64,000 nt of DNA. Origin: an uncultured Candidatus Saccharimonas sp. (lineage in GTDB: Bacteria; Patescibacteriota; Saccharimonadia; Saccharimonadales; AWTP1-31). Where the stretch lies: NCBI GenBank assembly GCA_943354005.1, contig CALRBE010000003.1:30153-94152 (forward strand). Reading direction: 5' to 3'. The notes under the pieces were generated by a model, which worked only from the letters and a program-made list of their open reading frames with translations, was not told the DNA's origin and did no database searches. Of the stretch, positions 3,680 through 51,255 are shown piece after piece (within the stretch, counting starts at the first letter, position 1; each line of letters starts with the position of its first letter). A program made the translations under genes and the position numbers.

Positions 3680-3705
3680 GGGATTATGGATAGCTACCAA
3701 TCTCT

Positions 3706-5769: not shown

Positions 5770-5791
5770 TAGATACAATGAGGAGATTAAA

Positions 5792-6880: not shown

Positions 6881-6888
6881 GGAATACC

Positions 6889-14679: not shown

Positions 14680-15131
14680 ACTTGTCTAGACATAAGCCTG
14701 CGTTGCATAAGTGCATACAAGCTATAACAAAAGAAGATTCCGAGTAAACCTGCAATAGAATCAATAAAGACATCCCGCAGTTCACTACTTCTTCCAATTA
14801 CAAACTTCTGGTGAAATTCATCCGAAATAGCATATAAAAATACAAAGAGCAGGGAATAGAGTGTTCTTCTACGTTCACTAAGCTTAAATTCTCTACTTAA
14901 GCTATATACCATAATGCCTAATATGAAATAAAGAAACATGTGAGCAGACTTACGCACAAGGAATGTTGCAATTCCTTGCGACGCAGGTACATACGCTTCA
15001 ATAGGCTCAACAAATATCCTACTTAACGATGAAGAGTCCTGAGCTACCTGATTTGAAAATATAAAGATAGCTACTAACCATATTACTAATGAGATAATTT
15101 TAACTAATCGTAATATGTTTATATTTTTCAT
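14676..15131 (-). CDS. VanZ-family membrane protein
   Basis: RKSAHMFLYFILG...DEFHQKFVIGRSSELRDVFIDSIAGLLG matches the VanZ signature. Overlaps the flippase gene by ATGA. Confidence 0.65.
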   Translation of the reverse strand: MKNINILRLVKIISLVIWLVAIFIFSNQVAQDSSSLSRIFVEPIEAYVPASQGIATFLVRKSAHMFLYFILGIMVYSLSREFKLSERRRTLYSLLFVFLYAISDEFHQKFVIGRSSELRDVFIDSIAGLLGIFFCYSLYALMQRRLMSRQV

Positions 15132-16660
15132 GATACTTTCTTAGATAATACACGGGTCGTTTTGAGTATAAGCTCCCGGTAATAAGATAACTCTTCACTA
15201 TTTCGATATATCAGATAAAGTAGAGCATTAGGTAATGCTATGCAGATGACTGTATTAAATATAAATTTGTATAAATTGTTGCTAATTGGCACTGTTCGAG
15301 ATAGGGCAAATGTCGCAGCAGATATGAAGAATACGATCACGAGCTTTGAAAAGAAATCATAATAATACTGCTTATTACTCATCTTAAATAATGGCTTGTT
15401 AACAAATTTAGGATAGCTATACAAGTGCAGGATAAGTGTACTACAAGCTGTACCCAAAAATACCCCCGCTAGGCCAAATACTTTTAAAAACGCAATCGAA
15501 AAGATTAAGTTAGCAATTGATTCAATCACTGGTACGAACCTATCTTCATGGAATATTCCCCCAGCCTCTTTGAAGCTATTTACAGATGAGCGCATTAACA
15601 TCATGTATAGATTTAAACTAATGGCGACCAATACGCCAATTGGAAGCAAGAACTGCGAACCAAGCCAAAGTGTTATGAAGCTATTCATAATAACTAGTAG
15701 AGATGTAGTAGCGAAACAAGCCATCCAGAAATTTCCAAAGCGGATCTTTTTGTATACTTCAAATGATTTACCGTCTTTAACGCTAACCAACAAGTTGCCT
15801 ATACTAGCTGTCACTGCGGTAAATGCTTGGTTTATTAGCATGATAATAGCAGTTGTTACGAGGAGATAGTTACTGTATAGACCGACTGTAGTGATACCGA
15901 AAAATAAAGAGATAATAATATTATCCGTACCCAGAACTACATAGCCTGCTACTTTGTGATAAGAGAGCCCTCGCACTTTTTTATAAATGTCAGACTTAGT
16001 GGCTGAGTCAAGCGCAAGTACTTCCTTTTCTTTTAAGTATGGGTATTTTTTGTTTGTAATTATTGTTAGGACTATATTCTCCGCTAATCTCATCGCAATC
16101 TTGAGTACGAGGTATAGGTAAAAGTTACCAGTAATTAATAGTGCTGATATTTGTAATGCATTTAAAGAGATAAGGTATCCAAGGTGTACGGTACTAATTA
16201 TGTGGTTATTCTGTTCGACGTAGAGTACGGCTCTCTTATATGTAAGTAGGTACGAAAAAAAAACGTCTAGAAGAAACAGAAGATAGATTATGTATATACT
16301 CTCAGCGATATTCGTTTCACCTACAATTGAACTTAGAAGAGGAATGACTAATATACCTAGTGAGAAAACGGCGAGGGCGATGAGCCTATAGCATTTTTTA
16401 TAGAAATTAACTATAGATTGAACTTTCACCGTATCTTTTTCTGAAATAGGTTTGTATAAGTGAAAATATATTGCTGACCCGAGGCCCAGCTCAACAAGTG
16501 CAAGCATCGATACAATACTAGTAAACAATCCATTAATACCTAGATACTCAGTACCCAAAGTGCCAATAAAGACACTTTGGGCAATAAGCCCAATAAAGAT
16601 TGTTGCAATGCTCATTAAAAATGCAATCAAGGTATTGCGGATCGAATTTTTTGTACGCAC
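15128..16660 (-). CDS. wzx: polysaccharide/O-unit flippase, Wzx (MOP superfamily)
   Basis: 510 aa, about 12-14 TM helices. The N-terminal region is typical of oligosaccharide flippases. Confidence 0.75.
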   Translation of the reverse strand: MRTKNSIRNTLIAFLMSIATIFIGLIAQSVFIGTLGTEYLGINGLFTSIVSMLALVELGLGSAIYFHLYKPISEKDTVKVQSIVNFYKKCYRLIALAVFSLGILVIPLLSSIVGETNIAESIYIIYLLFLLDVFFSYLLTYKRAVLYVEQNNHIISTVHLGYLISLNALQISALLITGNFYLYLVLKIAMRLAENIVLTIITNKKYPYLKEKEVLALDSATKSDIYKKVRGLSYHKVAGYVVLGTDNIIISLFFGITTVGLYSNYLLVTTAIIMLINQAFTAVTASIGNLLVSVKDGKSFEVYKKIRFGNFWMACFATTSLLVIMNSFITLWLGSQFLLPIGVLVAISLNLYMMLMRSSVNSFKEAGGIFHEDRFVPVIESIANLIFSIAFLKVFGLAGVFLGTACSTLILHLYSYPKFVNKPLFKMSNKQYYYDFFSKLVIVFFISAATFALSRTVPISNNLYKFIFNTVICIALPNALLYLIYRNSEELSYYRELILKTTRVLSKKVS

Positions 16661-16709
16661 TAAATTTTACCTTTGTACTTAATTTTATAAATATAGATAC
16701 TCAACATGA

Positions 16710-17885
16710 TTATTTGGTTCTCCTAGATGCAGTATTCTTATCAATCAATATAGCATCGAGCGACCTAAAAGCTTTTTGCCAGCTTAGTTGTTTTGAAAGA
16801 ATTATTGATTTATTACTTTTTTCATCCCATCTATTCTTTTTTGTAAATATACCAACCTTTTTAGCAAAGTCATTAACGTCATCATAGTATATAGTAGCGT
16901 CATCGAGTAATTTATCGCGTCGCCAACTAGGTGATATGACAGGTAAGCCAAACGACATGTATTCTAGCTGTTTTGAAGAAAAACTGTTTTTACGTAGCGG
17001 ATCCTTACTAATAGTAATCAGCCCAAACTGATAATCTTGCATGATATCTTTTGTAGGAGCATAGCCTTTATAATTTATTCCGTATGATATTGGAGGCTTA
17101 GGACCACCAAAAACATCAATATTTTTATTACTTCGGCATAGTTCACCCAACAGACTAAGATTTACCCAGCTCCCCTTAAGAAGCCCCATAAATATAATTT
17201 TAGGCTCGGCATTATATTTTGCCTTGAACGATTTCTGATTTACGCCATATGACATATCTATGAAGTTAGCGCCATTATATTTGTGAGCTTTTACGTATTC
17301 GGCATAAGTATGCCAGTGAAACGAGATATGGTCTGCGCGAGAATACATTTTAACTTCATATTTTTTATACTTTCTGTAAGTTTTATTAGTGATTAGTCCT
17401 CCATAATATTTTTCTTCAGCTTGCGGTGAAGGTAGGTCAAGAATCTGTATATCCGCGACGCGTTTATGTTCTAAAAATGCAATATCTGAGTTATTTTCAC
17501 ATATTATAATGTCTGGTCTTTTGATACATAACAAGTCATGTACGATTTTACCCCTTAAATACAGAATTTTCATCAAAAACATAGAATTAGTATGGCGAGA
17601 TATTTTGTTTCCAGTAAATCTATTGAAGAGCGAACTTGCTACTTCAAGTACGTACAAAATAAATTTACGTGGCGAAGTACCCGGAAATGCAATTCCAATA
17701 CCATTTGACGAGAATCTGCTTAGATACCTTGTCGATACTAGCTCAGTATATATACCCTTACTGGTGAAATACGCTTCTAATTCCTTAGGTTTTACGGAAT
17801 TTGCAAATGCATCAATACTGCATAGTATAACAACTTTATTAATTGAATAATTATCTTTCATTCCATCTCTTTCTATTTTTACCAC
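16710..17885 (-). CDS. putative glycosyltransferase (GT1-fold, GT4-like C-terminal motif)
   Basis: QLEYMSFGLPVISP resembles the E-x7-E / FGLPxLEAM-GxPVI region of GT4 enzymes. Sits inside the polysaccharide cluster. Confidence 0.45.
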   Translation of the reverse strand: MVKIERDGMKDNYSINKVVILCSIDAFANSVKPKELEAYFTSKGIYTELVSTRYLSRFSSNGIGIAFPGTSPRKFILYVLEVASSLFNRFTGNKISRHTNSMFLMKILYLRGKIVHDLLCIKRPDIIICENNSDIAFLEHKRVADIQILDLPSPQAEEKYYGGLITNKTYRKYKKYEVKMYSRADHISFHWHTYAEYVKAHKYNGANFIDMSYGVNQKSFKAKYNAEPKIIFMGLLKGSWVNLSLLGELCRSNKNIDVFGGPKPPISYGINYKGYAPTKDIMQDYQFGLITISKDPLRKNSFSSKQLEYMSFGLPVISPSWRRDKLLDDATIYYDDVNDFAKKVGIFTKKNRWDEKSNKSIILSKQLSWQKAFRSLDAILIDKNTASRRTK

Positions 17886-18988
17886 TTTATACTCATGCTA
17901 GTAAGGGTGTACTCGGAAACTCCTAGCCACTCGGGTTTAAGGTATAGTTGCGCAAAAGAAATAATTAATAACGCGAACATAATTATTAATCTCAAGCTGC
18001 GTATATAAGGAGTCCTGGGGGTGTGCTTAAAGAAATCTGGTATTCCGGTTACGCTATACATTAAATACAAATTCGATATTCTACTTATTGAGTTTACCTT
18101 TACTGCAACAGCGCTAAACACTGTACTCAATAGTAAAATTTTTATATAAAATGATTTAAGAATATTATCTTTTTCAAAGTATGTAATATTGTTTAAGCGA
18201 TAGATCGTAAAGAGTAAAACAGTAATCATTAAAATTATAAGAAATGTAATTACACTACCTATACTAAAGCTATTCAATCTATCGACGTAGAAATAATACC
18301 TAGCGTTTGAACCGGCTAGCCCATAGATTATGTTATTTATCAATAAAAGTAAGGTTATCGTAGCTAGTGCGCTAACGGTCATATTGTGTTTAGATACTTT
18401 CTTGCCGTAAAGAAAATATGGTACTAGCATGAGTAGACTAGATTGATGAATTAACGTAGCTAATAATACCAGTGCTATGTATTTAATTAATTTTCTTTCT
18501 AATATATAACCGAAGCCCCAGGCTAGTACACCCATTGCGAGTGACTGCCTAAATGTATTCATTGTTCCAAAAAAGAATAATGAAATAAAAATTATCATAC
18601 TAAATAAATAGTCTGAGGAATATTTTTTTATAAATCTATAAAAAGAATAGTAAACAAACCCATACGATATTAAAAAATATGTTGTGAAAGACGAGAATAA
18701 ACTACCTATCGAATAAGTGTAGAAGGTAAACCCATTCTCAAAACCATTGACACTAAACAAGTTGACAATACTAACGCCATTGAGAGTTTTAATACCTTCT
18801 TCTTGAAGCAGTCTAAAAAACTGATAATAAGGAACTGTGTCTGCCCCAACGGTTAGCCCACGCAGGCTAGCAATTAACCATAGTATTATAAACGAGATAA
18901 AAAGAGCCGTAACATTAAGTTTTCTATACTTTTTAGTAGAAATCAGCAGTGCAGATATTACCAAAATAGTTACATAATATATAACCAT
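17879..18988 (-). CDS. EpsG/Wzy-like polysaccharide polymerase (multi-TM)
   Basis: 369 aa, about 10 TM helices. N-terminal LRGLTVGADTVPYYQFF resembles the EpsG family start. Confidence 0.5.
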   Translation of the reverse strand: MVIYYVTILVISALLISTKKYRKLNVTALFISFIILWLIASLRGLTVGADTVPYYQFFRLLQEEGIKTLNGVSIVNLFSVNGFENGFTFYTYSIGSLFSSFTTYFLISYGFVYYSFYRFIKKYSSDYLFSMIIFISLFFFGTMNTFRQSLAMGVLAWGFGYILERKLIKYIALVLLATLIHQSSLLMLVPYFLYGKKVSKHNMTVSALATITLLLLINNIIYGLAGSNARYYFYVDRLNSFSIGSVITFLIILMITVLLFTIYRLNNITYFEKDNILKSFYIKILLLSTVFSAVAVKVNSISRISNLYLMYSVTGIPDFFKHTPRTPYIRSLRLIIMFALLIISFAQLYLKPEWLGVSEYTLTSMSIKW

Positions 18989-18992
18989 AGTA

Positions 18993-20102
18993 TTAGACCT
19001 TTAGGCACCTTCTGTACTCATCAGTAGTTCTTTTGCTTATATAATCCCAGTTATGGTGTTTGCTGATATACAATCTGGAATTTTCTGACATCTTTTTAAG
19101 TACATTTTTATTTATACTTAGGTCGAGAATAACTTTTGCTATGACTACTGGATCATCTGATACCGCAAAACCCAATTTGCTTTTTGATATAGCTTCTTTC
19201 ATTGAAGTTCCTTCTGTAGCAATTGTAGGTATACCAAAACTCATAGCTTCTAGCATGCCCATTGGCTGACCTTCACTGCGCGACAACTGAACAAAACAGT
19301 CATGTTTAAGGAGTAATTGTATTTTGTCGTTACCAAAAACCGCTTCTTGAAGCTTAACTATTTTATCTAGTTCATACTTACGTATTGATTCTTGGATTAT
19401 AGATTTATTATTATCAAAGTCTGTGCCTGATATTGAAAATGTGATGTTACAGTCGTTCGTTTTGTTTTTTATAATACGAGCCACTTCTATTAATCTATCT
19501 AGTCCTTTTTGATTAATATCAAGCCTGCCAACATATACTAATTTTAGATCATCATTATTGAAGTTTGACTTTACTTCTTTAGGTAAAGCCATGCCGTTGC
19601 TAGAAACAAACGAGCTAGTGCTCCATTTAGCAGAGCTCTTTTTTTCGAATTCTGATAGATAATGTATGGCTTCTGAGCCTTTAATGAATCTATTAAATAA
19701 CAAAATGTTAGCAACTTGCTTTTTGTGTTTTTTAGAATATTGGGCTACATCAGTAAGAGATGAATGCGGGACTATAATATATGGGATCCCCCTTTTTTTT
19801 AGTTGTTTGCTTATTGTTATAAATACCGGCCAGTATACTTCGTGAAAAACTACAAGACTTGGGCTATTATGTGGTTCGGGTAATTTTGACACATTAGTAC
19901 CAAACCTTTGAATTGTATACACAGGATATTTTTCCTTCGACTCAGACGGGATATATTCATTTATGTTTAAAAGAGCAACATTTGCATACTTTGATTGGCC
20001 CTCTAGGTGCTTTGGCACAACAACACAAACTCCATTAAATTTTTGATCACGAATATTACCAACATGTACTATATTTAATTTTTTGTTATTTGTTTTGGAC
20101 AT
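18993..20102 (-). CDS. glycosyltransferase family 4 (GT-B)
   Basis: SEGQPMGMLEAMSFGIPTIATEG matches the EGFG..LEAMA.G.PVIAT motif. Confidence 0.8.
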   Translation of the reverse strand: MSKTNNKKLNIVHVGNIRDQKFNGVCVVVPKHLEGQSKYANVALLNINEYIPSESKEKYPVYTIQRFGTNVSKLPEPHNSPSLVVFHEVYWPVFITISKQLKKRGIPYIIVPHSSLTDVAQYSKKHKKQVANILLFNRFIKGSEAIHYLSEFEKKSSAKWSTSSFVSSNGMALPKEVKSNFNNDDLKLVYVGRLDINQKGLDRLIEVARIIKNKTNDCNITFSISGTDFDNNKSIIQESIRKYELDKIVKLQEAVFGNDKIQLLLKHDCFVQLSRSEGQPMGMLEAMSFGIPTIATEGTSMKEAISKSKLGFAVSDDPVVIAKVILDLSINKNVLKKMSENSRLYISKHHNWDYISKRTTDEYRRCLKV

Positions 20103-20103
20103 T

Positions 20104-20874
20104 TTACGCCCTCCTTAATATGGCATTAACTAAGTACCATGAAAAATTGTAAGTAGAAGATATGAATCTTAATTTCTCGATATCTCTATATAAATTCCAA
20201 GTTCTCTTTAACGCTGTAAGTTTATTAGCAGACAACGATTCTGCTGTACGACGATAATACGAAAATATCTCATTCAGACCATTAGCATTATCAATTGTCT
20301 TGAGAATCTTCCACCAAGTTGCAGTGTCCTGACCTCTCTTGATTAAAGGCATGTGAATTGTGTCCTTCTCTAATATATGAGTATCTAGCATGACAGTAGA
20401 GGTCCAGATCGTAGTATTCTTTAGTGCTTGTTTATACGTAATTGTTTCTGGCACGTGGACCTTCTTGCCATTTGGTTTACCATTTTCGTCTGCAAACTCA
20501 TATCCAGTAAAAGAGAAGGCTGCATTTTTTTCTTGCATGAATGCAACCTGAAGTTCTAGCTTATTCTTAACCCATAGATCATCTGCATCTAGAAATGCTA
20601 GGTAGCGGCCTTTTGCATTATCGATCCCAGTATTGCGTGCAATCGCCGCACCTGAATTTTCAGACAACATGAAAAACTTGATGCGTTTATCTTTTTTCAG
20701 ATACTTCTGAATAATTAGTACACTATCGTCGGACGAACAATCGTCGACTAGAAGCAGTTCCCAGTTTTGATATGTCTGGTTTTGTACAGTCTGGATAGTA
20801 TCATCCATGAAGCGAGCTGCGTTATATACAGGCACGACAATACTAACAAGAGGTTGTTTGCTTTCTTTTGCCAT
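20104..20874 (-). CDS. glycosyltransferase family 2
   Basis: LVSIVVPVYNAARFMDDTIQTVQNQTYQNWELLLVDDCSSDDS is a GT2 N-terminal signature including the DxD region. Confidence 0.85.
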   Translation of the reverse strand: MAKESKQPLVSIVVPVYNAARFMDDTIQTVQNQTYQNWELLLVDDCSSDDSVLIIQKYLKKDKRIKFFMLSENSGAAIARNTGIDNAKGRYLAFLDADDLWVKNKLELQVAFMQEKNAAFSFTGYEFADENGKPNGKKVHVPETITYKQALKNTTIWTSTVMLDTHILEKDTIHMPLIKRGQDTATWWKILKTIDNANGLNEIFSYYRRTAESLSANKLTALKRTWNLYRDIEKLRFISSTYNFSWYLVNAILRRA

Positions 20875-20878
20875 CCTA

Positions 20879-21490
20879 TTATCCTCGCTGATCCTTCAGG
20901 AGACTTAGTTCAGTATGGATACCGTGCTTCTCAATCTCACGACTACCTTTAGCTACAATTGCTTTGAACGTTAAGAATACTATCTTTGCATCTTCACGAG
21001 GCGAGATACGGTTAACGTATCCAAGATCGTAATCAATCTTTTTATAAATTGAAAGGCTATTTCTGCCATGTACCTGAGCTAGGCCAGTCATACCAGGAAG
21101 TACATCAACGCGGTGGCGTTGTTCTTTAGTCATAAACTCATAGTATTCAGGTATCCAGGGACGTGGTCCTATGAATGACATCTCACCCTTTACGATATTG
21201 ATAAGCTGCGGAATCTCATCCACTGACAGTGCGCGAACATACTTACCGACTGTAGTCAGTTGATTACCTTTAGTAATATCTCGTACATCGTTATTGTGTG
21301 TCATTGTACGAAACTTATAGATCTTAAAGTTCACGCCTCTAATCCCGGTGCGTTCTTGTCGAAACAGTACTGGGCCTTTGCTTGATAACTTGATCAGAAG
21401 GGCAGTGAACAGTGTAAGCGGTAGCGTAAGCACTATGACTGCTACTGCGAGCGTTATATCAAGTGGTCTTTTGACATAACGCTTATACAC
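20879..21490 (-). CDS. undecaprenyl-phosphate sugar phosphotransferase (bacterial sugar transferase, PglC/WcaJ C-terminal type)
   Basis: KRPLDITLAVAVIVLTLPL...GPVLFRQERTGIRGVNFKIYKFRTM is the conserved core of priming hexose-1-phosphate transferases. Confidence 0.85.
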   Translation of the reverse strand: MYKRYVKRPLDITLAVAVIVLTLPLTLFTALLIKLSSKGPVLFRQERTGIRGVNFKIYKFRTMTHNNDVRDITKGNQLTTVGKYVRALSVDEIPQLINIVKGEMSFIGPRPWIPEYYEFMTKEQRHRVDVLPGMTGLAQVHGRNSLSIYKKIDYDLGYVNRISPREDAKIVFLTFKAIVAKGSREIEKHGIHTELSLLKDQRG

Positions 21491-21495
21491 TTTAT

Positions 21496-22359
21496 CTACC
21501 TAGTGTTCTTTTTATCTTTTTCTTGGGTAGGAAGAATCGATTTAGCACGCTTAGATATGTAGCTGCCAAATGAATTAGTCTTCTTAGCCTTCTTGTCTAC
21601 GAAAGTACGGCCTGTAACCCATTTCTTGTCAGCAATGTTATTTGCTGCACGAGTTGTAGCTACAACTTGTGGTGCTGCTGCCTTAACTGTCTTTTTCTTT
21701 GCAGGTGCAGCTTTCTTTGTAGTTTTCTTGACTGGAGTAGCTTTTTTTACTGTCTTTTTCTTTGCAGTCTTCTTTGGTTTAGGGTTGTTTAAGCGGTAAT
21801 CGTAAAGGAAGAATAGACCTATGATAGAACCCATGAATCCAACCATGCTTGCAAGAATAAGTTGTAATCCAGTGCGTACGTTATACGGAGTAGAGCTATA
21901 GCTTGCTGTGTCTACAATCTTAATGTTTTCTTTGTTGTAGAGATTCTTAATTTCAGTTTTAAAAGTACTGATGATACCGTTAGTTACTTTTTCACTATCT
22001 TGAGGACTCTTAGTAGTTACATTAAGCTTAATAACTTGTGTATCTTTACTTGTAGTTGTATCTACAGAACCGGCAAGTGATTCGTAGCTTAGATTAATGT
22101 TATTAGAAGTAATAACATTTTCTAGAACTCTACGAGACTTAATAATTTCACTATAGTTATTGATAAGGGTAGCTGTACTAGCCGCATCTTTTACATCTGT
22201 ATTAATAACAAGAAGTGTTGCAGTACTCTTATACATTGGTACCTGAATGAAGTTGTTATATATAACTCCAGCTGACAGCCCAATGACTGTAGCAATTACT
22301 ATTACAAACCAATTCTTGGCGTAAAATTTTAACAGATGATATAAATTAATTTCTTGCAC
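21496..22359 (-). CDS. Wzz-like chain-length determinant / polysaccharide co-polymerase with lysine-rich C-terminal tail
   Basis: N-terminal TM, periplasmic-type domain and second TM. Then a tail KPKKTAKKKTVKKATPVKKTTKKAAPAKKKTVKAAAP resembling histone-H1 AKP repeats. Confidence 0.55.
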   Translation of the reverse strand: MQEINLYHLLKFYAKNWFVIVIATVIGLSAGVIYNNFIQVPMYKSTATLLVINTDVKDAASTATLINNYSEIIKSRRVLENVITSNNINLSYESLAGSVDTTTSKDTQVIKLNVTTKSPQDSEKVTNGIISTFKTEIKNLYNKENIKIVDTASYSSTPYNVRTGLQLILASMVGFMGSIIGLFFLYDYRLNNPKPKKTAKKKTVKKATPVKKTTKKAAPAKKKTVKAAAPQVVATTRAANNIADKKWVTGRTFVDKKAKKTNSFGSYISKRAKSILPTQEKDKKNTR

Positions 22360-39693: not shown

Positions 39694-40263
39694 ATGAGCT
39701 TTGAAGATTACAAAACAAAAGAATCCGTTGTCATTGTCTATACAGGCGAAAGTAAGGGAAAAACAAGCGCCAGCCTAGGCCTATTAGTCCGTGCATTAGG
39801 TAATCGTTGGAACGTAGCCTTTATTCAATTTATTAAATACTGGGGTGTTGGAGAGCATGTTTTTATTCGCGACATTATGCCGTTATATAAAGACCAGATC
39901 CATTTTCATAAAGGTGGTAAGGGCTTTTATAAGGCAGGGGACTTAAGTCCGCAGCACATTTCAGAAGATCAGCATAAAAAAGCTGCTCAGGAAACCTACG
40001 ACGAAGCATTACGTTCAGCAACTAGCGGAAACTACGACCTTGTAATCTGCGACGAAATAAACAATGCAGTGCATGACGGACTCGTTAGCGAAGCACAGCT
40101 TAAGAAACTTATTACAAGTCGCCATAAGAAAACCAGTCTCTGCATGACAGGACGCGATTTTCCTGAAAAGCTATTACCACTTGTAGACATTGCGACTAAT
40201 ATGACAAAGATTAAACACCACTTTGATGATAAGTTTCTGGCCAATCCTGGCATAGATTACTAA
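39694..40263 (+). CDS. CobA/CobO/BtuR-family P-loop protein (ATP:corrinoid adenosyltransferase-like)
   Basis: YTGESKGKTSASLGLLVRALG...AFIQFIKYWGVGE...LVICDEINNA matches the CobA family layout (GKGKTTAA ... QFxKG ... DE). Confidence 0.55.
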   Translation: MSFEDYKTKESVVIVYTGESKGKTSASLGLLVRALGNRWNVAFIQFIKYWGVGEHVFIRDIMPLYKDQIHFHKGGKGFYKAGDLSPQHISEDQHKKAAQETYDEALRSATSGNYDLVICDEINNAVHDGLVSEAQLKKLITSRHKKTSLCMTGRDFPEKLLPLVDIATNMTKIKHHFDDKFLANPGIDY

Positions 40264-42878: not shown

Positions 42879-43367
42879 TTGCGGTACAATAGCTACATTG
42901 TGAAGAAGAAAAATACACAACCAAAGCTGATTTCCAACCGACGCGCTCGTCATGACTATGAAATTGACGATACACTTCTTGTTGGCATGCAGCTTACTGG
43001 AGCCGAGACTAAAGCACTGCGCCACGGGCACGGACAGCTTCGTGGTGCCTATATTACGGTAAAAGACGACGAACTATACTTACTTAATGCTACTATCTCA
43101 AGCTTGCCCGGAGTATCGATTCCTGAAGCAGAACAGACTAGAACACGAAAGCTTCTTGCAAAACGCAGCGAAATTAATAAACTTATTGCGCTTAAACAAC
43201 AGGGCAACGCAATAGTGCCGCTAGCAATACTAACTGGTAATCGCTACATAAAACTACGTATTGCAGCTGGACGAGGAAAGAAACAGTACGATAAACGCCA
43301 AACACTCAAAGCTAGAGATCAAAACAGGGAAGCTAACGCAGCGATTAAAGATAAGGTACGCTCATGA
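42879..43367 (+). CDS. smpB: SsrA-binding protein SmpB
   Basis: ISNRRARHDYEIDDTLLVGMQLTGAETKALRHG...LYLLNATIS is the canonical SmpB core. Confidence 0.85.
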   Translation: MRYNSYIVKKKNTQPKLISNRRARHDYEIDDTLLVGMQLTGAETKALRHGHGQLRGAYITVKDDELYLLNATISSLPGVSIPEAEQTRTRKLLAKRSEINKLIALKQQGNAIVPLAILTGNRYIKLRIAAGRGKKQYDKRQTLKARDQNREANAAIKDKVRS

Positions 43368-43870
43368 GTGAAGATGCAATAGTTCATATTTTTAACGAAG
43401 ATAATGTCAAAATAGGCGAGATTCCACGTAAGGATCTCACAATCGAGCATAAATGGCGGATTATTTGCGTATGGATTGAAAATGACAAAGGCGAAACCTT
43501 GCTACAGCAGCGATCACTAAAGAAAACACATGGCCCTGGTCTCTGGACGGTCGCAGTTGAAGGAACAGTTGAAAATGACGATTCATTTGAGGAGACAGCA
43601 AGAAGAGAAATCGAAGAAGAAATTGGACTTAAAGAATTTACAATGACAACAGCAAAACGTATTAGCTTTGAAGCCGCAACTGGCTGGAGAGATGCCCAAG
43701 GATATATCGTCCGATGTAACTGGCCAATAGAAAAATTTACTGTTCAAGCTAGTGAAGTCGAGAAGTTGCAATGGAAGAACAAAAAAGATGTTATTCGTGA
43801 AATGAAGGCTCAAGATCCTAAGTATCCAAAACAAGCCCCAATCTGGCTTGAAATGTTTGACCTTGTCTAG
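43364..43870 (+). CDS. NUDIX hydrolase
   Basis: Nudix box GTVENDDSFEETARREIEEEIGL. Confidence 0.75.
   Translation: MSEDAIVHIFNEDNVKIGEIPRKDLTIEHKWRIICVWIENDKGETLLQQRSLKKTHGPGLWTVAVEGTVENDDSFEETARREIEEEIGLKEFTMTTAKRISFEAATGWRDAQGYIVRCNWPIEKFTVQASEVEKLQWKNKKDVIREMKAQDPKYPKQAPIWLEMFDLV
43840..43870. repeat. 31-bp direct repeat, copy 1 (3' end of NUDIX gene including its stop)
   Basis: AATCTGGCTTGAAATGTTTGACCTTGTCTAG. An identical copy lies at 44762-44792, and flanking similarity extends the match to about 55 bp. Confidence 0.8.
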
Positions 43871-43906: not shown

Positions 43907-44500
43907 TTAAGCCAAATCACTACTAAGATACTTCTTAAGCAAAGAAAAGGGATCAACGTCTTCAATTGATTTTAGGTATTCTTTCCACTCTTTATCATCT
44001 AGTTCAGCAAGGCTTTTATTTGGAAAGGTTGGATGGCCATATACATATAGTAAATCCGTCCACCCATGAAGATTTGTACCTTTTGGTTTATTAGTTATAA
44101 ATCCAACCTCGTTGGCAACTAGTACTTTATCCTTTTTGCCATCATAGTAAGCAACCGCGTATGAAAAGATAGCTCTTCGATCTTTTTCGTCTGCCATAAG
44201 CTTTATAAGTCCCTTATAGCTAAAACTATCAAGCAGTAATTTCACAAATGGCCCTGGAAAGCCATTAAGTGCAGGTATAAAAAAGCCTCTATCATCGACA
44301 ATGATTTTTTTATTTGGAAATGCTTTTTTTGCTTGAGCTAGTTTATATTTTGCGACAGCTTCTATACTTAATTCACGCCCCTCATCAAAGTCGTAAATCT
44401 GTTGCTTCAGAGTAATGCCGATTGAGCCCAACTGTTTTTTAAGACTCTCATATTTCTTTTTATTTGATGTAATAAAATATATATCTTGCGCCTGTTTCAT
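43907..44500 (-). CDS. Ham1/ITPase-family non-canonical purine NTP pyrophosphatase, divergent paralog A
   Basis: FITSNKKK (vs ATGNxGK) and DDRGFFIPALNGFPGPFVK (vs DDSGL.VDALNGAPGVYSAR) match the ITPase/RdgB core. Confidence 0.65.
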   Translation of the reverse strand: MKQAQDIYFITSNKKKYESLKKQLGSIGITLKQQIYDFDEGRELSIEAVAKYKLAQAKKAFPNKKIIVDDRGFFIPALNGFPGPFVKLLLDSFSYKGLIKLMADEKDRRAIFSYAVAYYDGKKDKVLVANEVGFITNKPKGTNLHGWTDLLYVYGHPTFPNKSLAELDDKEWKEYLKSIEDVDPFSLLKKYLSSDLA

Positions 44501-44761
44501 CTAATAATCTCCTTAATAAGTATATCCTCGTCCCAAATACCCCTTACTTTACGTCTAAGGTATAAGTAATATATTTTTAATGTAGAGTCGTAGACTTTAG
44601 TATCAATATCAGGGTTATTCACTTTAACTCCATACATTAAGATAAATATCATATTGAATACGAATATGCAATTCTATAAAAGTTAACTGCAATTGGTCAA
44701 TACAAAAGACGTTATTAGGTTAATGATAACTAAAGACCTAGTATTTCCAAAAGCAAGTAAC

Positions 44762-44792
44762 AATCTGGCTTGAAATGTTTGACCTTGTCTAG
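44762..44792. repeat. 31-bp direct repeat, copy 2
   Basis: Identical to 43840-43870. It preserves the reading frame of the last 13 codons of the NUDIX gene but has upstream stops, so it is a non-functional gene-end copy. Confidence 0.8.
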
Positions 44793-44834
44793 TGGGCTGT
44801 TTTTAGATATAATTTGACAGTTGTAGAACAATAT

Positions 44835-44909
44835 TCGGGAGTAGCTCAATGGTGGAGCAAGAAGCTGTTAACTTCGAGGTTGCCGGTTCGAGTCCGGCCT
44901 CCCGAGCCA
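44835..44909 (+). tRNA. tRNA-Asn (anticodon GTT)
   Basis: Cloverleaf: acceptor TCGGGAG/CTCCCGA, D-stem GCTC/GAGC, anticodon loop CTGTTAA (U33, GUU, A37), T-arm GCCGG-TTCGAGT-CCGGC, discriminator G, encoded CCA. Confidence 0.9.
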
Positions 44910-44992: not shown

Positions 44993-45832
44993 ATGGAAAG
45001 ATCTGAAATAATTATCCCTGTTTTTAATGGCGAGCGACATCTGGGCAGTCTACTGGAATCATTATCGCATCAGACTATAGAACAATACTCGGTAACGATC
45101 GCGGACAATGGATCAACTGACGGGTCGATTGCGGTCGCAGAAAGTTTTAGGGATATATTCGAGCTAAAAATTATTGATGCATCTCGCAAGCAGGGCAAGG
45201 CTGTTGCACTCAACGAAGCCGTAATAAAATCCTCTGCTCAAAAATTGATCTTTGTTGATCAAGACGATATGGTTAACACTTCATACGTTGAATCCATGGC
45301 TGAAGCCATCGCGCAAAATCCTTTAGTGGCATCAACTATGGACGGAGAATTGTTAAACAAGAAGTTCGAGGTAGCACCACGGATTATTACCCGCGATCAA
45401 AGACTAGGGCATTTTGCCATTACGACCGTCTCGGGTGGAACAATGGGCATGACTAGAAAGGCTTTTGAGCACATAGGCGGTTTTAATGAGGACTTTAATT
45501 ATTCAACTAATGATGCAGAATTTTGCCAACGAGCTTACGCAAAGGGTTATGATTTTAAGCTTGTCTATGATGCAACCTTGTTTTACCGATTGCGCGATAC
45601 TCTTATTGGTAATTTACAGCAGGGCATAGGATATGGCATAGGAAACTACCAACTTGCTAAAATTCACCCGGAAATGCGAGGCGACCAAGCTACATCTAGA
45701 CAACTGCTTCAGGAAACAATCGCACTAGCTGGAAACTTTATAGCTAATAAATCTAATAGGGCGCGTAACTCTCATCTTATTGGAAAAAATGTCGGGCAAA
45801 TGCAAGAAAAGTTACGAACTTTTCTTTACTAA
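44993..45832 (+). CDS. glycosyltransferase family 2
   Basis: IIIPVFNGERHLGSLLESLSHQT...ADNGSTDGS and a DQDD motif. Confidence 0.7.
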   Translation: MERSEIIIPVFNGERHLGSLLESLSHQTIEQYSVTIADNGSTDGSIAVAESFRDIFELKIIDASRKQGKAVALNEAVIKSSAQKLIFVDQDDMVNTSYVESMAEAIAQNPLVASTMDGELLNKKFEVAPRIITRDQRLGHFAITTVSGGTMGMTRKAFEHIGGFNEDFNYSTNDAEFCQRAYAKGYDFKLVYDATLFYRLRDTLIGNLQQGIGYGIGNYQLAKIHPEMRGDQATSRQLLQETIALAGNFIANKSNRARNSHLIGKNVGQMQEKLRTFLY

Positions 45833-46222
45833 ATAATTAAATACATCTACGTAGTAGGGGTCCATCGAGCTGTCTATTCCCCGAATAATTATTTCTTCTA
45901 CGCTAAGCCACTCATAGCCTTGATGTTCCCAGCTTAAGCGTACCGCTAAATCATTTTCACTAACATTCGCGTTAAAAAGTACGTGATTTACATTAGGGTA
46001 ATTTATTTCAAAAGCCTCACTTGTTTGACTGCTCGTAATTACGATGCCTGTTTCTTCTTGAATCTCACGGATAATTGCATCTTTAATTTGCTCTCCCTCT
46101 TCGACTTCACCACCCGGAAGGTCTAAGTGTCCAGGAAAATGTGGATGTGTCTTACCCCTATATAGCAAAAGTAGCTTTCCGTCTAAATTACGGACTAAGG
46201 CCTTAGCAACGATCTTCTTCAT
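45812..46222 (-). CDS. NUDIX hydrolase
   Basis: Nudix box GGEVEEGEQIKDAIIREIQEETGI. 136 aa. Confidence 0.75.
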   Translation of the reverse strand: MKKIVAKALVRNLDGKLLLLYRGKTHPHFPGHLDLPGGEVEEGEQIKDAIIREIQEETGIVITSSQTSEAFEINYPNVNHVLFNANVSENDLAVRLSWEHQGYEWLSVEEIIIRGIDSSMDPYYVDVFNYLVKKSS

Positions 46223-46275: not shown

Positions 46276-46917
46276 ATGAATTCAACAGAGGTGAAGTCAT
46301 TTTTCGAGTATGACGTAGAAAGTCGTATAATTAAATCTGATAAACTATCATGCAACATCGACGAAGCATTAAAAAGAGTCCAAGCATGGAAAAAAAATGG
46401 TTTTACAATAGTCTTTACTTCGGGGGTCTTCGACATTCTTACACTAAATCACCTACTGGGATTGTATCACTACAGAATGCTGGGTGGAGATAAAACTAAG
46501 CTTGTAGTATCCATAGATACCGATGAACGTGTTAAATCATCAAAAGCTTTCAATACTTCTAAGGGCGGGTCAGTTAAACCAATCTTGTCTTGGGATAACC
46601 GAGCACTGATGATTGCGAAGCAAGCCACTAACGAGAGTAACATACTAGTAGACCTAATTCTTCAGCACGGAAGTGACACCTGCAGAGGTGTATGTCCGCA
46701 TGACGATAACGTAAGTATTGCAGAAAATTTACAACCAGACTTAGTAGTAGTTAACAGTAAGAGTCGGGATACTATTTCGAAGCTAGAACAAAGTACTATA
46801 ATTTCAAGTAATAATATACTAATTATTCAAGAAGAAGAATTAGCATATGAAGATGAACTACTTGGTGGCAAAATCAGTAATGCCAAAATTATAAATAGGA
46901 TAAAAAATGGAAACTAA
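46276..46917 (+). CDS. cytidylyltransferase-like (HIGH-nucleotidyltransferase fold) protein with degenerate HxGH motif, paralog 1
   Basis: TSGVFDILTLNHLLGL aligns to the G-x-FD-x-x-H-x-GH motif with H replaced by T and G by N. The C-terminus LLGGKISNAKIINRIKNG resembles the ISST-x-I-x-RI motif of TagD/RfaE-type enzymes. Confidence 0.4.
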   Translation: MNSTEVKSFFEYDVESRIIKSDKLSCNIDEALKRVQAWKKNGFTIVFTSGVFDILTLNHLLGLYHYRMLGGDKTKLVVSIDTDERVKSSKAFNTSKGGSVKPILSWDNRALMIAKQATNESNILVDLILQHGSDTCRGVCPHDDNVSIAENLQPDLVVVNSKSRDTISKLEQSTIISSNNILIIQEEELAYEDELLGGKISNAKIINRIKNGN

Positions 46918-47617
46918 CGCAGAGTTAACAAATAACTTTATTAATCAGTCTATAAATAACCGTATCGTCAATTGGACTGGTGAAGATAAGTGTACTGCAG
47001 AAGCTACGAGTACACTTGTAGATACTTGGCATCGAACTGGAAGCTTTGTTGTGGCAAATGCTGGCGGCTATGACTCTATGGGCCTTAATCACCTGAGAGG
47101 CCTAATGCAAGCACGAATTATTGGTGCGATACACCTGTTAGGTGGCGAGGGGAGTGTAAACGATATTTATGAACTTGCAAGTTCAGAAGATATTCGACTG
47201 CTTATTTCACTAGATACAAACGATGCACTTGAAGAGAACAAATCATATAAAGCAAACGGTGCCTACTCTGTTCGGCCTTTACTCGATTGGGATACTAGAG
47301 CGCGCACCCTCGCACTTCAAGGATTTGGAGGCGGTCGTGAATTAGTAGACTTCATAACTAAGCATGGTCCACTTGCATGTAGCGTTTGCGTAGCGGAAAG
47401 TTGCAATCACTCAAGTAAAACATTCAATATTGCCGATAGTGGAGCAGATCTAATTGTATTGAAGGATATTAATACTGACCAATTAGCTAACTATCCAAAC
47501 ACTTCGTTTCATGTGATAGAAGAGACAGAGGGAGCCTTCCATGACAAATTACTCGGTGGGCAAATCAGTACCTCAGCACTTGTTCGGCGCATAATTCAAA
47601 AAGATAAAAAAATATGA
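46907..47617 (+). CDS. cytidylyltransferase-like protein with degenerate HxGH motif, paralog 2
   Basis: NAGGYDSMGLNHLRGL and C-terminal LLGGQISTSALVRRI are co-linear with the upstream gene (tandem duplication). The two genes overlap by 11 nt. Confidence 0.4.
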   Translation: METNAELTNNFINQSINNRIVNWTGEDKCTAEATSTLVDTWHRTGSFVVANAGGYDSMGLNHLRGLMQARIIGAIHLLGGEGSVNDIYELASSEDIRLLISLDTNDALEENKSYKANGAYSVRPLLDWDTRARTLALQGFGGGRELVDFITKHGPLACSVCVAESCNHSSKTFNIADSGADLIVLKDINTDQLANYPNTSFHVIEETEGAFHDKLLGGQISTSALVRRIIQKDKKI

Positions 47618-48597
47618 GTAGGCCGCTAGTTTCAATTCTTATTCCAGTTACAAAAAATGAAGCAGATTGTTTACCGGCAACACTTCATTCAGTCAGGGAG
47701 GATATAAAAAATTTTGGTAAAAAGTCAGAGATTATAGTCATCGCAAATAACTGTAAGGGAACAAGTGATCTGGTTGCAGAGGATGTATTCGGGAGTGAAG
47801 ATTTCAAAGATGATATGGCAGTTGGCAAAGTGATACATTGCGACACACCAGGTAAGATGTTTGCAGTCAACAAGGGCATCGATATTGCCGAGGGCAAGTA
47901 CCTAATCCTTATTGACGGCGATTTACTAATGGATCCGGGTTCAATCGCTTGGACGGTTGACGCGATAGATAAACCCGACGTCACGGTTGTAAGTATGCAT
48001 CACGTGCCAATTGAAGGTACGTTGCCGGAAGATGCAGATCTCGCTCGCGTAATAATGATGAACTCCTACCGTCGCCATTCTTTCCCAGAAAAGTACTGGC
48101 TACACGGCGCATATTTAGGATGGTCAAGCAGCTTCATGATTGAGGGTGAAACCCTTCGATTTCCTGCAGGTGCTCGTGTTCATGAGGATAATTGGTTAAC
48201 TGCAATTATTGCTAGAGATTACGGCTTTCATACAATACGAGTTACAAAGAACTATATGGCTCGTTTTATACCTCCGCAAACCTGGGAGGATTACTACCGT
48301 CAACAGTGGAGATATCAGTTTGCGCACAAAGACCTTGAGGAAAGTTTTCCAGAACTTGCTGAATTTATACCTACAATACGTCGGTGGACAAACAATAAAT
48401 ATCCAGAAGATTGGATCGACAGAGAATGGCGTGAAAAGTGTATCTTTGAGGGTATTGATTTTGATGAGTTTATTAGTATATATAATAAAGTACTCGCTAA
48501 AGTCCGCACGGGTCGTCAAGAGTCACGTGAGTTGCTTGATAAAAACGGAGTTTGGAAACAGCAAATTACAACCAAGCATGATAGGCGAAATGAATAA
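47614..48597 (+). CDS. glycosyltransferase family 2-like protein
   Basis: VSILIPVTKNEADCLPATLHSV... and a DGDLLMD (DxD) motif. Start overlaps the previous gene (ATGA). Confidence 0.6.
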   Translation: MSRPLVSILIPVTKNEADCLPATLHSVREDIKNFGKKSEIIVIANNCKGTSDLVAEDVFGSEDFKDDMAVGKVIHCDTPGKMFAVNKGIDIAEGKYLILIDGDLLMDPGSIAWTVDAIDKPDVTVVSMHHVPIEGTLPEDADLARVIMMNSYRRHSFPEKYWLHGAYLGWSSSFMIEGETLRFPAGARVHEDNWLTAIIARDYGFHTIRVTKNYMARFIPPQTWEDYYRQQWRYQFAHKDLEESFPELAEFIPTIRRWTNNKYPEDWIDREWREKCIFEGIDFDEFISIYNKVLAKVRTGRQESRELLDKNGVWKQQITTKHDRRNE

Positions 48598-49732: not shown

Positions 49733-50482
49733 CTACATATCTGTTTCGTTCAACGCGTCTTGTATAACAACATTAGGGTTGAACTCATAATCTATTCCAC
49801 GGATTAGAACCGCTGGTTTGTTGGTGCCACGTTGCCCCATGATTAATGCAGCTGATGCTGCAACCATGTCGCACAAAGTCTCTTCAGCAACTTGTGTTTT
49901 ACCTTCATCGGATATAGACTCAGTTACTCTAAGTGGAGGTACACCATATACGCCAATTGCTAATTGTGTAGCGCCTTTTTTGTCTTCACGGCCATCACTA
50001 TCAGTAATGATTATGCCCACATTGATTCCTGTAGTTTCTAGGATTCTTTGGCCTATTCGCTTGGCACTTTCATCGGAATTTTCTGGTAACAATATGACAG
50101 TCTCGGCACTCATCTTATCTACGCCCGCGCTAGTAAGTCGCAAGCCGTTAGGCAACCAACCAGCAATATAATTACCCTGAATCTCCAATCTACTTCCATC
50201 AGGCTTACCGGTCTCATCAATCATGAGCTGTAAAGTACGTACGTCTTTACGTGGTACTCGTTCGTGTATTTGTTTAGCAATTTCTCCCGCATCAACATCT
50301 ACCAAATTAATTTGTCTTTGCTCAGCAATTGACACTGCTTTTGAGGCAACACAAATGATGTCATTTTCTTCCAATATAATGCCGGCTGATTTAATTGCAG
50401 TTAAGAGGATGTCTCCGATTTCTTGTCCAGACTCAATGTAGGGTATGTTTGGTAATGTTTCTACGGTTATACGGTCGCTCAT
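49733..50482 (-). CDS. CofE-family gamma-glutamyl ligase-like protein (F420-0:L-glutamate ligase homolog)
   Basis: Co-linear with CofE: LPENSDESAKRIGQRILETTGINVGIIITDSDGR and KPAVLIRGI match the family blocks LPENPDESA...GVIITDTNGR...PAVVVRG. Confidence 0.75.
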   Translation of the reverse strand: MSDRITVETLPNIPYIESGQEIGDILLTAIKSAGIILEENDIICVASKAVSIAEQRQINLVDVDAGEIAKQIHERVPRKDVRTLQLMIDETGKPDGSRLEIQGNYIAGWLPNGLRLTSAGVDKMSAETVILLPENSDESAKRIGQRILETTGINVGIIITDSDGREDKKGATQLAIGVYGVPPLRVTESISDEGKTQVAEETLCDMVAASAALIMGQRGTNKPAVLIRGIDYEFNPNVVIQDALNETDM

Positions 50483-50712: not shown

Positions 50713-51255
50713 ATGAAAATATACTTTATAACTGGAAATGCCAGAAAAGTTGGCGAGGCGAAGCTTGCTTGTGAGCTCGCAGGAATAGAAATAGTTCAAC
50801 AGCAAGTAGAAATTGATGAAATCCAATCGACAGTTCCTCACGCTATATCTATTGATAAAGCCGAGAAAGCATACAATTTAATCAAGAAACCTCTGGTTGT
50901 AACGGACACCTTTTGGAGAATACCGGCACTTAATGGTTTCCCCGGAGCATACATGAAAGATATCGCTAACTGGTTTAGTAGTGAAGATTTCCTTTCACTT
51001 ATGGAAATGAAAGAAAACAGACAGATATTCTTTAGTGAGAATATTACTTATAAAGATACTGAAACCATTAAGCAATTCTCGCAGGAATATGAGGGAATTA
51101 TTGTCACAGAGCCTAGAGGAACGGGAAATAGTATAGAAAATGTTGCCCAATTCGAAGGATTCACCCTGGGTGAGAGACGTGAACAAGGTGGATACAGCCA
51201 TAAGCCTGAAGATTATGTTTGGAATGATTTCGTAAAATGGATTAACAAAAAGTAA
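50713..51255 (+). CDS. Ham1/ITPase-family NTP pyrophosphatase, divergent paralog B
   Basis: MKIYFITGNARK, TDTFWRIPALNGFPGAYMK and EPRGTGNS match the ITPase core. It shares the ALNGFPG(P/A)(F/Y)(V/M)K variant with paralog A. Confidence 0.65.
   Translation: MKIYFITGNARKVGEAKLACELAGIEIVQQQVEIDEIQSTVPHAISIDKAEKAYNLIKKPLVVTDTFWRIPALNGFPGAYMKDIANWFSSEDFLSLMEMKENRQIFFSENITYKDTETIKQFSQEYEGIIVTEPRGTGNSIENVAQFEGFTLGERREQGGYSHKPEDYVWNDFVKWINKK

Follow-up and report, generated by a model that had tools for sequence, protein, structure and literature searches.

Tandem HldC-related nucleotidyltransferase-fold proteins with a conserved variant of the HxGH motif in a glycosyltransferase and NUDIX cassette of Saccharibacteria

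The stretch of DNA analysed here (hereafter the window; 64 kb, G+C 0.386) comes from an uncultured Candidatus Saccharimonas sp. and carries two overlapping genes, ORF1 and ORF2, whose products (CT-A and CT-B) are paralogous proteins with the fold of HIGH-superfamily nucleotidyltransferases. Both belong to a family in which the H-x-G-H motif of the superfamily is replaced by H/T-x-N/D-H. No curated model describes this family, which we regard as a new subfamily within a known superfamily. We put the probability at about one half that CT-A and CT-B work together as subunits in a hetero-oligomeric nucleotidyltransferase, from a sister family of HldC/RfaE domain II, which feeds the family-2 glycosyltransferase (GT2b) encoded directly downstream. 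The gene pair comprises the following features (window positions).

46276..46917, + strand: ORF1, encoding CT-A (213 aa, ATG start), an HldC-related nucleotidyltransferase-fold protein of the A subclade
46423..46452, + strand: ORF1 nucleotide-binding motif G50-V-F-D53-I-L-T56-L-N58-H59, the equivalent of GxFDxxHxGH according to orthologs and hhalign; T56-L-N58-H59, read from the sequence, lies at 46441-46452
46858..46902, + strand: ORF1 C-terminal putative nucleotide-clamp motif LLGGKISNAKIINRI (residues 195-209), the probable equivalent of (RTxG)ISTT according to conservation and alignment
46907..46917, + strand: overlap of the ORF1 stop and the ORF2 start, 11 nt, read from the sequence
46907..47617, + strand: ORF2, encoding CT-B (236 aa, ATG start), a paralog of ORF1 of the B subclade
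47063..47092, + strand: ORF2 motif G53-G-Y-D56-S-M-G59-L-N61-H62, from conservation in 24 orthologs; G59-L-N61-H62, read from the sequence, lies at 47081-47092
47549..47593, + strand: ORF2 C-terminal motif LLGGQISTSALVRRI (residues 215-229), with I220, S221 and T222 invariant
47614..47617, + strand: overlap of the ORF2 stop and the GT2b start, ATGA, from the sequence and the ORF table

When the two proteins were compared using BLASTP, they were co-linear over their whole length, with 27 % identity over 232 columns and an E-value of 5e-29. This similarity is far beyond chance and, together with the co-linearity, makes them true paralogs, in agreement with an initial annotation made from the sequence alone, which had described co-linear paralogs overlapping by 11 nt. 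The overlap, also present in the ORF table, is consistent with translational coupling. ORF2 has an extra helical insert of ~20 aa after the motif helix. Of the hallmarks named in the initial annotation, G-x-(F/Y)-D, T/G-L-N-H and the C-terminal motif were all present; the spacer between IS and (I/V)-x-RI proved to be four residues long and not three.

The AF2 model of ORF1 (pLDDT 85.9) was searched against the PDB using Foldseek. The top match was HldC of Burkholderia pseudomallei (5xf2; E-value 4.8e-8, TM(target) 0.70-0.75), followed by choline-phosphate cytidylyltransferase (CCT), ethanolamine-phosphate cytidylyltransferase (ECT) and pantothenate synthetase (PanC). The ORF2 model had a lower pLDDT (72.2, with the loop of residues 112-121 below 50) and matched CCT (3hl4; E-value 8.5e-5) and HldC (E-value 2e-3). 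For both models, the top matches were HldC, CCT, ECT and PanC at a probability of 1.00, and the fold predicted for each protein is the Rossmann-like alpha/beta nucleotide-binding fold of the HIGH superfamily.

Profile comparison led to the same superfamily. A joint alignment of the A and B paralogs (A3) was compared using hhalign with a second alignment (A6), made of proteins that reach the cut-off of the NCBIfam model rfaE_dom_II (TIGR02199), and it matched these bona fide RfaE-domain-II/HldC proteins over the full length with 99.6 % probability and an E-value of 1.2e-23. In this alignment H-x-G-H of the HldC type corresponds to T56-x-N58-H59 of ORF1, K74 to K90, R78-P79 to K101-P102, R86 to R109 and S-T-T to I-S-(N/T). 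The putative clamp region reads GGKISNA in ORF1 and GGQISTS in ORF2; its I-S aligns with the canonical STT but lacks the Arg-Thr that precedes this segment in TagD. The profile-profile match establishes homology to the superfamily despite a sub-threshold Pfam score (see below). The HIGH/cytidylyltransferase fold of the initial annotation therefore stands, since similarity to the fold was found in both the profile and the structure comparisons.

Neither protein is an ordinary member of the known subfamilies. ORF1 scored 30.8 bits (2.3e-7) with TIGR02199, matching model positions 3-73 only, against a cut-off of 181.5, and 12.1 bits with the TagD model TIGR01518 against a cut-off of 165.4. No match to TIGR02199 was obtained for ORF2, while the control proteins P0164, P0154 and P0184 passed. 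When ORF1, ORF2 and ten distant relatives were scanned against Pfam and NCBIfam, only sub-threshold RfaE-II or CTP_transf_like matches were observed. The suggestion that the pair represents a variant family was thus supported, as it is distinct from ordinary TagD, HldC or CCT orthologs.

A word-indexed search returned 28 homologs of the ORF1 type and 24 of the ORF2 type, the latter always sharing contigs with A. Across 29 orthologs of ORF1, residues G50, F52, D53, N58 and H59 were invariant, as was I200 of the clamp, and S201 was at least 90 % conserved. In the case of ORF2, G53, D56, N61 and H62 were invariant across the 24 orthologs, with G, T or S at the first motif position. N58/N61 and H59/H62 are thus invariant within the A and B sets, and 21 positions are invariant across both.

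The joint A+B profile was then used in an exhaustive hidden Markov model (HMM) search of 1.84 billion representatives, which gave 248 matches at an E-value of 1e-3 or lower and 80 at 1e-10 or lower. About 100 of the matches (50 %-identity clusters) are full-length proteins of 230-296 aa and form a separate family. Its members were matched over their full length with E-values of at most ~1e-8, and canonical cytidylyltransferases appeared from ~1e-6 and through the N-terminus only. In the 85 full-length family members that were compared, His occupies the first motif position 63 times and Thr 13 times. Where the Gly of HxGH would stand, 62 members have Asn, 11 have Asp and 4 have Gly, and the last His is present in all 85. 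K90, K96-G97, R/K101-P102, W106, R109, D126, D155, D193 and R208 are also conserved (ORF1 numbering). Among the weaker matches outside the family (n=50), HxGH was found in 43 and HxNH in none. We defined the family signature as G-x-[FY]-D-x-x-[HTQGS]-x-[ND]-H with K90, [KR]101-P102, W106, R109 and D193, and both ORFs conform to it.

The initial annotation had called the motif degenerate and had considered a pseudo-enzyme pair. It is true that neither ORF has a canonical H-x-G-H after G-x-F-D and that only the last His is canonical. Nevertheless, the Asn and His of the motif (Asn58 and His59 in ORF1) are invariant in both paralogs, and Asn or Asp stands at the Gly position in 73/85 family members. 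Judged from these sequences, H-x-[ND]-H is a conserved family signature under purifying selection and not the result of decay. The family-wide invariant residues (G, F/Y, D, H, K90, P102, W106, R109 and D193) are all kept by ORF1 and ORF2, which makes a dead pseudo-enzyme pair unlikely. Replacement of motif residues has precedents in active enzymes: phosphopantetheine adenylyltransferase (PPAT, CoaD) has Thr at the first position (TxGH), and ATP sulfurylase has H-x-x-H, in which the Gly is replaced and the last His is retained. These two enzymes differ from the present pair in substrates and subfamilies and show no A/B pairing, and we know of no other HIGH-type enzyme in which the first His is missing and the Gly is also replaced by Asn.

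A second group of conserved residues lies outside the nucleotide-binding motifs and forms a candidate metal site in each protein.

46351..46353, + strand: ORF1 Cys26 in the N-terminal helix, proposed metal ligand, invariant in the A and B families
46666..46701, + strand: ORF1 insertion H131-G-S-D-T-C136-R-G-V-C140-P-H142, proposed Cys3-His (Zn) knuckle, from conservation and hhalign
46991-46993, + strand: ORF2 Cys29, part of the proposed metal site, invariant in the B family
47363..47410, + strand: ORF2 insertion H153-G-P-L-A-C158-S-V-C161-V-A-E-S-C166-N-H168, proposed metal site, from conservation

The Cys/His segment is an insertion relative to HldC in the hhalign alignment. H131, C136, C140 and H142 of ORF1 are invariant in the A family, and H153, C158, C161, C166 and H168 of ORF2 are, like C29, invariant in the B family. 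The pattern, a Cys in the N-terminal helix (C26/C29) plus the insertion H-G-x-D-x-C-(x)n-C-x-H/C, is specific: C26, C136, C140 and a fourth His/Cys occur in all members of the paired clade described below and in no member of the other clades. The Cys3-His/Cys pattern probably marks a structural zinc site, through which the N-terminal helix would be held to the insertion. Its presence in both A and B places its origin before the duplication.

A neighbor-joining tree rooted with canonical RfaE-II proteins (bootstrap n=100) resolved the family into a paired clade with A and B subclades, a VPHPNH-type clade and a clade whose members are 270-280 aa long and have HLDH or HxNH. Monophyly was recovered in 85/100 bootstraps for A, in 82/100 for A+B and in 42/100 for B, and the A-type and B-type proteins of known cassettes fell into separate groups in 84/100. 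The A-type proteins clustered with A of other genomes and not with B of their own genome, and the duplication is thus older than the divergence of these lineages. The tandem duplication put forward in the initial annotation holds as paralogy; a recent origin does not, because separate orthologs of A and of B were present in all the cassettes examined. Basal A members have H-x-N-H (e.g. L007_A, P0055) or H-x-S/T-H (L021_A, P0056). In the B-clade proteins of known cassettes, the first motif position is taken by G, T, S or Q and never by His. The mean column identity is 63 % for B and 54 % for A. The loci retrieved from species representatives of GTDB are named Candidatus Saccharibacteria or Saccharimonadales, with the exception of one "uncultured bacterium".

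In the window, the pair lies between two family-2 glycosyltransferase genes, as had been annotated initially, and next to a NUDIX gene which is located between GT2a and ORF1 and is divergent from ORF1.

44993..45832, + strand: GT2a, family-2 glycosyltransferase (279 aa), accessory cassette member, Pfam Glycos_transf_2 1.4e-21
45812..46222, - strand: MutT-like NUDIX hydrolase (136 aa) with a complete Nudix box, core cassette member, Pfam NUDIX 5.9e-19
47614..48597, + strand: GT2b, family-2 glycosyltransferase (327 aa) with a DGD motif, Pfam Glycos_transf_2 4.6e-14

The NUDIX, CT-A, CT-B and GT2b genes occurred together in 7/7 independent full-length cassettes in differing genomic settings (L001/L002, which are the same species, L003-6, L007, L008/9, L010, L021 and the window). 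The pairing is obligate: in all paired-clade loci that are large enough to hold both genes (L001-L010 and L021), A and B lie next to each other, and the 11-nt overlap recurs in L001, L003, L008 and L010. The window has all the marks of the paired clade, namely adjacent A and B genes, the Cys26/Cys136/Cys140 plus His/Cys site and GT2b directly downstream. The cassette genes lie on one strand in L007 (GT2a, A, B, GT2b, NUDIX) and L021 (A, B, GT2b, NUDIX). GT2a orthologs were found in L007 and L008 (43-46 % identity to the window protein) and are absent beside the cassette in L003 and L010. In the same genomes, identity to the window proteins was 67-76 % for GT2b, 37-59 % for CT-A, 36-55 % for CT-B and 40-50 % for NUDIX, so that GT2b, compared with at most 59 % for its partners, is the most constrained component. 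The retention of the cassette across lineages in which CT-A and CT-B are only 36-59 % identical, together with the conservation of GT2b, points to a function under strong constraint; it could be a conserved modification of the envelope, of a protein or of a small molecule.

Pfam recognized no membrane or export domain in GT2b, the C-terminal ~100 aa of which had no Pfam match, and a PDB sequence search with GT2b gave no match. The lack of a recognized membrane or export domain bears on the surface-glycan decoration that the initial annotation had considered as a possible role. The best PDB sequence match of the window NUDIX protein was the MutT-related 3grn (1.4e-15), followed by MutT, Ap4A hydrolase and CTP pyrophosphohydrolase, and weak NCBIfam matches to NadM-Nudix models (E-values 3e-5 to 4e-3) were also obtained.

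The relatives outside the paired clade are single-copy genes, and they have a different constant neighbor. One orthologous HIT protein of ~142-155 aa is encoded directly adjacent to the CT-like gene in 10/10 distinct single-copy loci (L011, L012/13, L014, L015, L016, L023/24, L027, L028, L030 and L031/32). The modules and their surroundings are as follows (positions within each locus).

L011, 1154-2346: CT-like gene and HIT gene
L012, 5334-6571: CT-like gene and HIT gene
L014, 5536-6768: CT-like gene and HIT gene, in the order ThyA, DHFR, DCD, HIT, CT-like, Tmk
L015, 3033-4261: CT-like gene and HIT gene, followed, as in L031/32, by dCTP deaminase and thymidylate kinase
L016, 3386-4653: CT-like gene and HIT gene
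L024, 671-1913: CT-like gene and HIT gene; SHMT in L023
L027, 3997-5268: CT-like gene and HIT gene, with ThyA and a dCMP-deaminase-like gene
L028, 5971-7278: CT-like gene and HIT gene, with a uridine-kinase-family gene and a phosphoribosyltransferase (PRTase) gene
L030, 166-1391: CT-like gene and HIT gene, with Maf
L031, 604-1823: CT-like gene and HIT gene, in the arrangement of L015

The stop and start codons of the CT-like and HIT genes mostly overlap. Several of the loci are pyrimidine-nucleotide operons, and in four of the ten the module shares an operon with dCTP deaminase and thymidylate kinase; other single-copy loci adjoin LtaS and LCP envelope genes. The HIT proteins have CxFC and HQHTHL motifs and are 39-52 % identical to one another. 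Three of the four tested passed the Pfam HIT threshold, one of these also that of DcpS_C, and a PDB sequence search with the HIT partner gave generic HIT matches only. CT-like plus HIT is a two-gene module described in no curated database. Enzymes of the HIT and NUDIX types alike act on NMP-X compounds (a nucleoside monophosphate, NMP, linked to a group X), in which they break the pyrophosphate or phosphoramidate bond. A gene for such an NMP-X pyrophosphatase neighbors the CT-like genes: NUDIX in the window and in all paired cassettes, HIT in the ten non-paired loci. The family therefore appears to need a partner of this kind, and, judging from the gene neighborhoods, Saccharibacteria appear to use a non-homologous one (NUDIX) in place of HIT. 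When the window was searched for a HIT partner and for a 160-176 aa NUDIX-like accessory protein seen in other cassettes (see below), neither was found.

We propose that CT-A would pair with CT-B as the subunits do in the homodimers of HldC, TagD and CCT, or as the two CT domains do in the pseudo-dimer of ECT. In each subunit the Cys3-His/Cys site, probably structural zinc, would staple the N-terminal helix (Cys26/Cys29) to the insertion loop, and each subunit would keep a Rossmann-like nucleoside triphosphate (NTP) site. The second His of the motif (H59/H62) would stabilize the transition state at the alpha-phosphate, the phosphates would be bound by K90/K112, K101/R123-Pro and R109/R131, and the C-terminal I-S-(T/N) loop would clamp the nucleotide. 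The Asn that is specific to the family and replaces the Gly may contact a substrate group that canonical enzymes do not recognize. The reaction would be NTP + X-phosphate -> NMP-phospho-X + pyrophosphate (PPi), and its product would serve as donor for the translationally coupled GT2b, and for GT2a where present. The MutT-like NUDIX protein would hydrolyze surplus or wrong nucleotide-linked species, a role that HIT would fill in the single-copy relatives. A weak hint at a pyrimidine nucleotide comes from the gene neighborhoods of the relatives and from the resemblance of the NUDIX protein to NudG or CTP pyrophosphatase.

Several observations weigh against a glycosyltransferase-feeding heteromer. 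In the Pfam search proposed in the initial annotation (CTP_transf_like, PF01467), ORF1 scored 16.4 bits against a threshold of 21 and ORF2 had no match; the structure prediction proposed alongside did show the fold. The first motif His is gone from both window proteins. CT-B lacks the family K96 and has the lower-confidence model (pLDDT 72, loop 112-121 below 50); with the first His missing as well, CT-B could be non-catalytic. In the loci examined, the cassette was found to have no kinase, mutase or isomerase gene whose product could supply a phospho-sugar or phospho-alcohol as acceptor. The window NUDIX protein is nearer to NTP pyrophosphatases (MutT) than to NDP-sugar hydrolases. The single-copy relatives lie in dTMP and pyrimidine-salvage operons without any GT2, so that the ancestral role may be in nucleotide metabolism and not in the synthesis of a glycan donor. 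Finally, no description of the HxNH family was found in the literature searched.

We also considered other explanations for the gene pair. The HxNH family and its HIT or NUDIX partner might act on free nucleotides, with the GT2 link secondary and lineage-specific; they could make or recycle a pyrimidine (d)NMP-X conjugate or a dinucleoside polyphosphate, or use PPi to interconvert NDP and NTP. The orthologous HIT gene in all ten non-paired loci points this way, as do the operons with dCTP deaminase and thymidylate kinase (L015, L031/L032), with ThyA and DHFR also in L014, the genes listed above for L027, L028, L023 and L030, the MutT-, NudG- or CTP-pyrophosphatase-like window NUDIX protein, and two Ham1/ITPase genes with a second NUDIX gene flanking the cassette. 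However, tight packing of housekeeping genes in small genomes makes neighborhood weak evidence, and some loci stand beside LtaS and LCP instead. The link of the paired clade to GT2b is absolute and translationally coupled, GT2b is the most conserved component, and this is hard to explain without a glycosyl-type donor; moreover, the closest characterized relatives (HldC, TagD and CCT) all make NDP-activated sugars or alcohols. On balance we consider a free-nucleotide role the main rival, though an unlikely one. A more far-reaching version, which we regard as speculative and improbable, is that HxNH plus HIT/NUDIX is an unrecognized two-enzyme nucleotide-handling module of reduced-genome bacteria, which makes and hydrolyzes an unusual pyrimidine conjugate or provides a missing step of (d)NTP supply and is wired into the dCTP-deaminase/thymidylate-kinase operons; in Saccharibacteria it would have been duplicated into a zinc-bearing heteromer coupled to the highly conserved GT2, and would produce or consume a nucleotide-linked compound that is not known from any organism.

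A softened form of the pseudo-enzyme idea, in which only CT-A is catalytic and CT-B serves as a scaffold or for regulation, would account for the fact that the first motif His is never kept in B of known cassettes (G, T, S or Q) and is present in the H-x-N-H of basal A, for the loss of the K96-G97 pair, and for the ~20 aa insert and the poorly modelled loop 112-121. We think it quite unlikely, as CT-B retains the invariant N61, H62, D56, K112, R123-P124, W128, R131, D213 and I220-S221-T222 and its mean column identity exceeds that of A, while Thr at the first position is compatible with catalysis in PPAT. It is highly improbable that the proteins are ordinary ADP-heptose synthase (HldC/RfaE domain II) orthologs or that both are dead. 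Several orthologs are named 'bifunctional ADP-heptose synthase' at JGI, and the best NCBIfam and PDB similarity is to RfaE domain II and HldC. The TIGR02199 score is, however, far below the cut-off and confined to the N-terminal third, the family was cleanly apart from canonical HldC in the exhaustive search, and none of GmhA, HldA and GmhB was found among the cassette neighbors in the seven independent loci. As for dead proteins, the non-canonical HxGH motif is set against strong purifying selection on the motifs.

The proposed heteromeric nucleotidyltransferase was also compared with characterized systems. HldC/RfaE (HldE) domain II (TIGR02199; PDB 5xf2/5x9q), a D-glycero-beta-D-manno-heptose-1-phosphate adenylyltransferase, is the best structural match of ORF1 and shares the N-terminal helix with a conserved Trp, GxFD, the second His, the Lys, the Arg/Lys-Pro, the Arg, VDxV and a putative C-terminal S-T-T-type loop. 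Unlike HldC (~160 aa), the window proteins are 213-236 aa long, have Asn in place of the motif Gly (Asn/Asp in the family), have lost the first His, occur as an A/B pair, and have no heptose-pathway genes nearby; a 7-residue insertion with K96-G97, the family-invariant Trp106 and the Cys/His insertion are further differences. The automatic 'ADP-heptose synthase' names of the orthologs are probably wrong. TagD (glycerol-3-phosphate cytidylyltransferase) and CCT, the latter being the best PDB match of ORF2, act as dimers and provide the CDP-activated alcohols from which envelope polymers are made. They have the same fold and motif layout, but the similarity is limited to the N-terminal half (E-value ~2e-3), and the present proteins have the variant motif and the metal-site insertion. 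ECT (Pcyt2; PDB 3elb), a structural match for both models, likewise consists of two diverged units in a pseudo-dimer; these are fused in one eukaryotic polypeptide and both have HxGH, whereas here two coupled bacterial genes encode T/G-x-N-H. NadM-Nudix (NMN adenylyltransferase/ADP-ribose pyrophosphatase) is a HIGH-fold enzyme that is also tied to a Nudix hydrolase, but as one fused protein with canonical HxGH and no GT2, and the window NUDIX protein is closer to MutT.

Saccharibacteria and related reduced-genome bacteria are host-dependent and have many conserved genes without an assigned role. The family is an example of how HxNH/HxDH can take the place of the textbook HxGH signature across a whole enzyme family. 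Identification of the substrate would annotate ~100 protein clusters and correct the 'ADP-heptose synthase' names, and could reveal a new nucleotide-activated donor in host-dependent bacteria.

Two further features lie on either side of the cassette in the window.

44835..44909, + strand: tRNA-Asn(GTT), ARAGORN; Rfam 64.5 bits
48733..49329, + strand: 198-aa protein with a faint HD-domain resemblance, Pfam HD E-value 0.056, below threshold

The tRNA-Asn is the sole tRNA in the window according to both ARAGORN and Rfam. The same tRNA stands ahead of the cassette in L001 and L002, which are close relatives, and not in other lineages. The G+C of the cassette (0.36-0.42 vs 0.386 for the window) showed no anomaly. 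The 'tRNA-flanked islet' of the initial annotation was therefore abandoned, and with it the idea of a genomic island, as there is one tRNA only, upstream, there is no shift in G+C, and the cassette occupies unrelated genomic sites in other lineages. When a phage collection was searched by tblastn with ORF1 and GT2b, only weak and partial GT2 and CT matches were obtained, which give no sign of a phage origin. No defense-system match was found in PADLOC-DB for the CT-like or GT2 proteins, and NUDIX gave a generic PDC-S07 match only. A scan for promoters and terminators showed no enrichment over shuffles and was uninformative.

The membership of the 198-aa protein in the cassette is doubtful, as it follows the cassette only in L001 and L002. 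At this position, other cassettes encode a conserved protein of 160-176 aa that resembles NUDIX only faintly (NUDIX_4, E-value 0.002) and that the window lacks.

L003, 9711-10193: degenerate NUDIX-like protein
L008, 8673-9188: degenerate NUDIX-like protein
L007, 9970-10482, - strand: degenerate NUDIX-like protein
L021, 8268-8798, - strand: degenerate NUDIX-like protein

The 3' ends of GT2a (+) and NUDIX (-) overlap by 21 nt in the window (45812-45832), and a convergent overlap of 48 nt is present in L008. L001 is a close relative, its ORF2 being 100 % identical to that of the window. Between Ham1 and tRNA-Asn it has ~4.7 kb of extra sequence (3330-7807, corresponding to 44500-44835 of the window) with genes for guanylate kinase, BpsA_C, AdoMet decarboxylase, ferric reductase, cytochrome b5 and DUF4352, and downstream the CofE and Ham1 genes are missing. 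The cassette is thus constant while its flanks vary.

The Ham1/ITPase paralogs (43907-44500, - strand; 50713-51255, + strand) and the second NUDIX gene (43364-43870, + strand) are a local concentration of nucleotide-sanitizing enzymes around the cassette. The window also has genes for a CofE-like F420-0:gamma-glutamyl ligase (49733-50482, - strand; Pfam 2e-44) and an ATP:corrinoid adenosyltransferase (CobA/CobO; 39694-40263, + strand; 9e-47), although no F420 or cobalamin pathway is visible in it. An ATP synthase operon at ~31.5-38 kb was recognized by eye only. Upstream of it, a run of minus-strand genes (15128-22359) has the look of a polysaccharide cluster (flippase-like, GT2 and sugar-transferase-like), as judged by eye from N-terminal sequences only.

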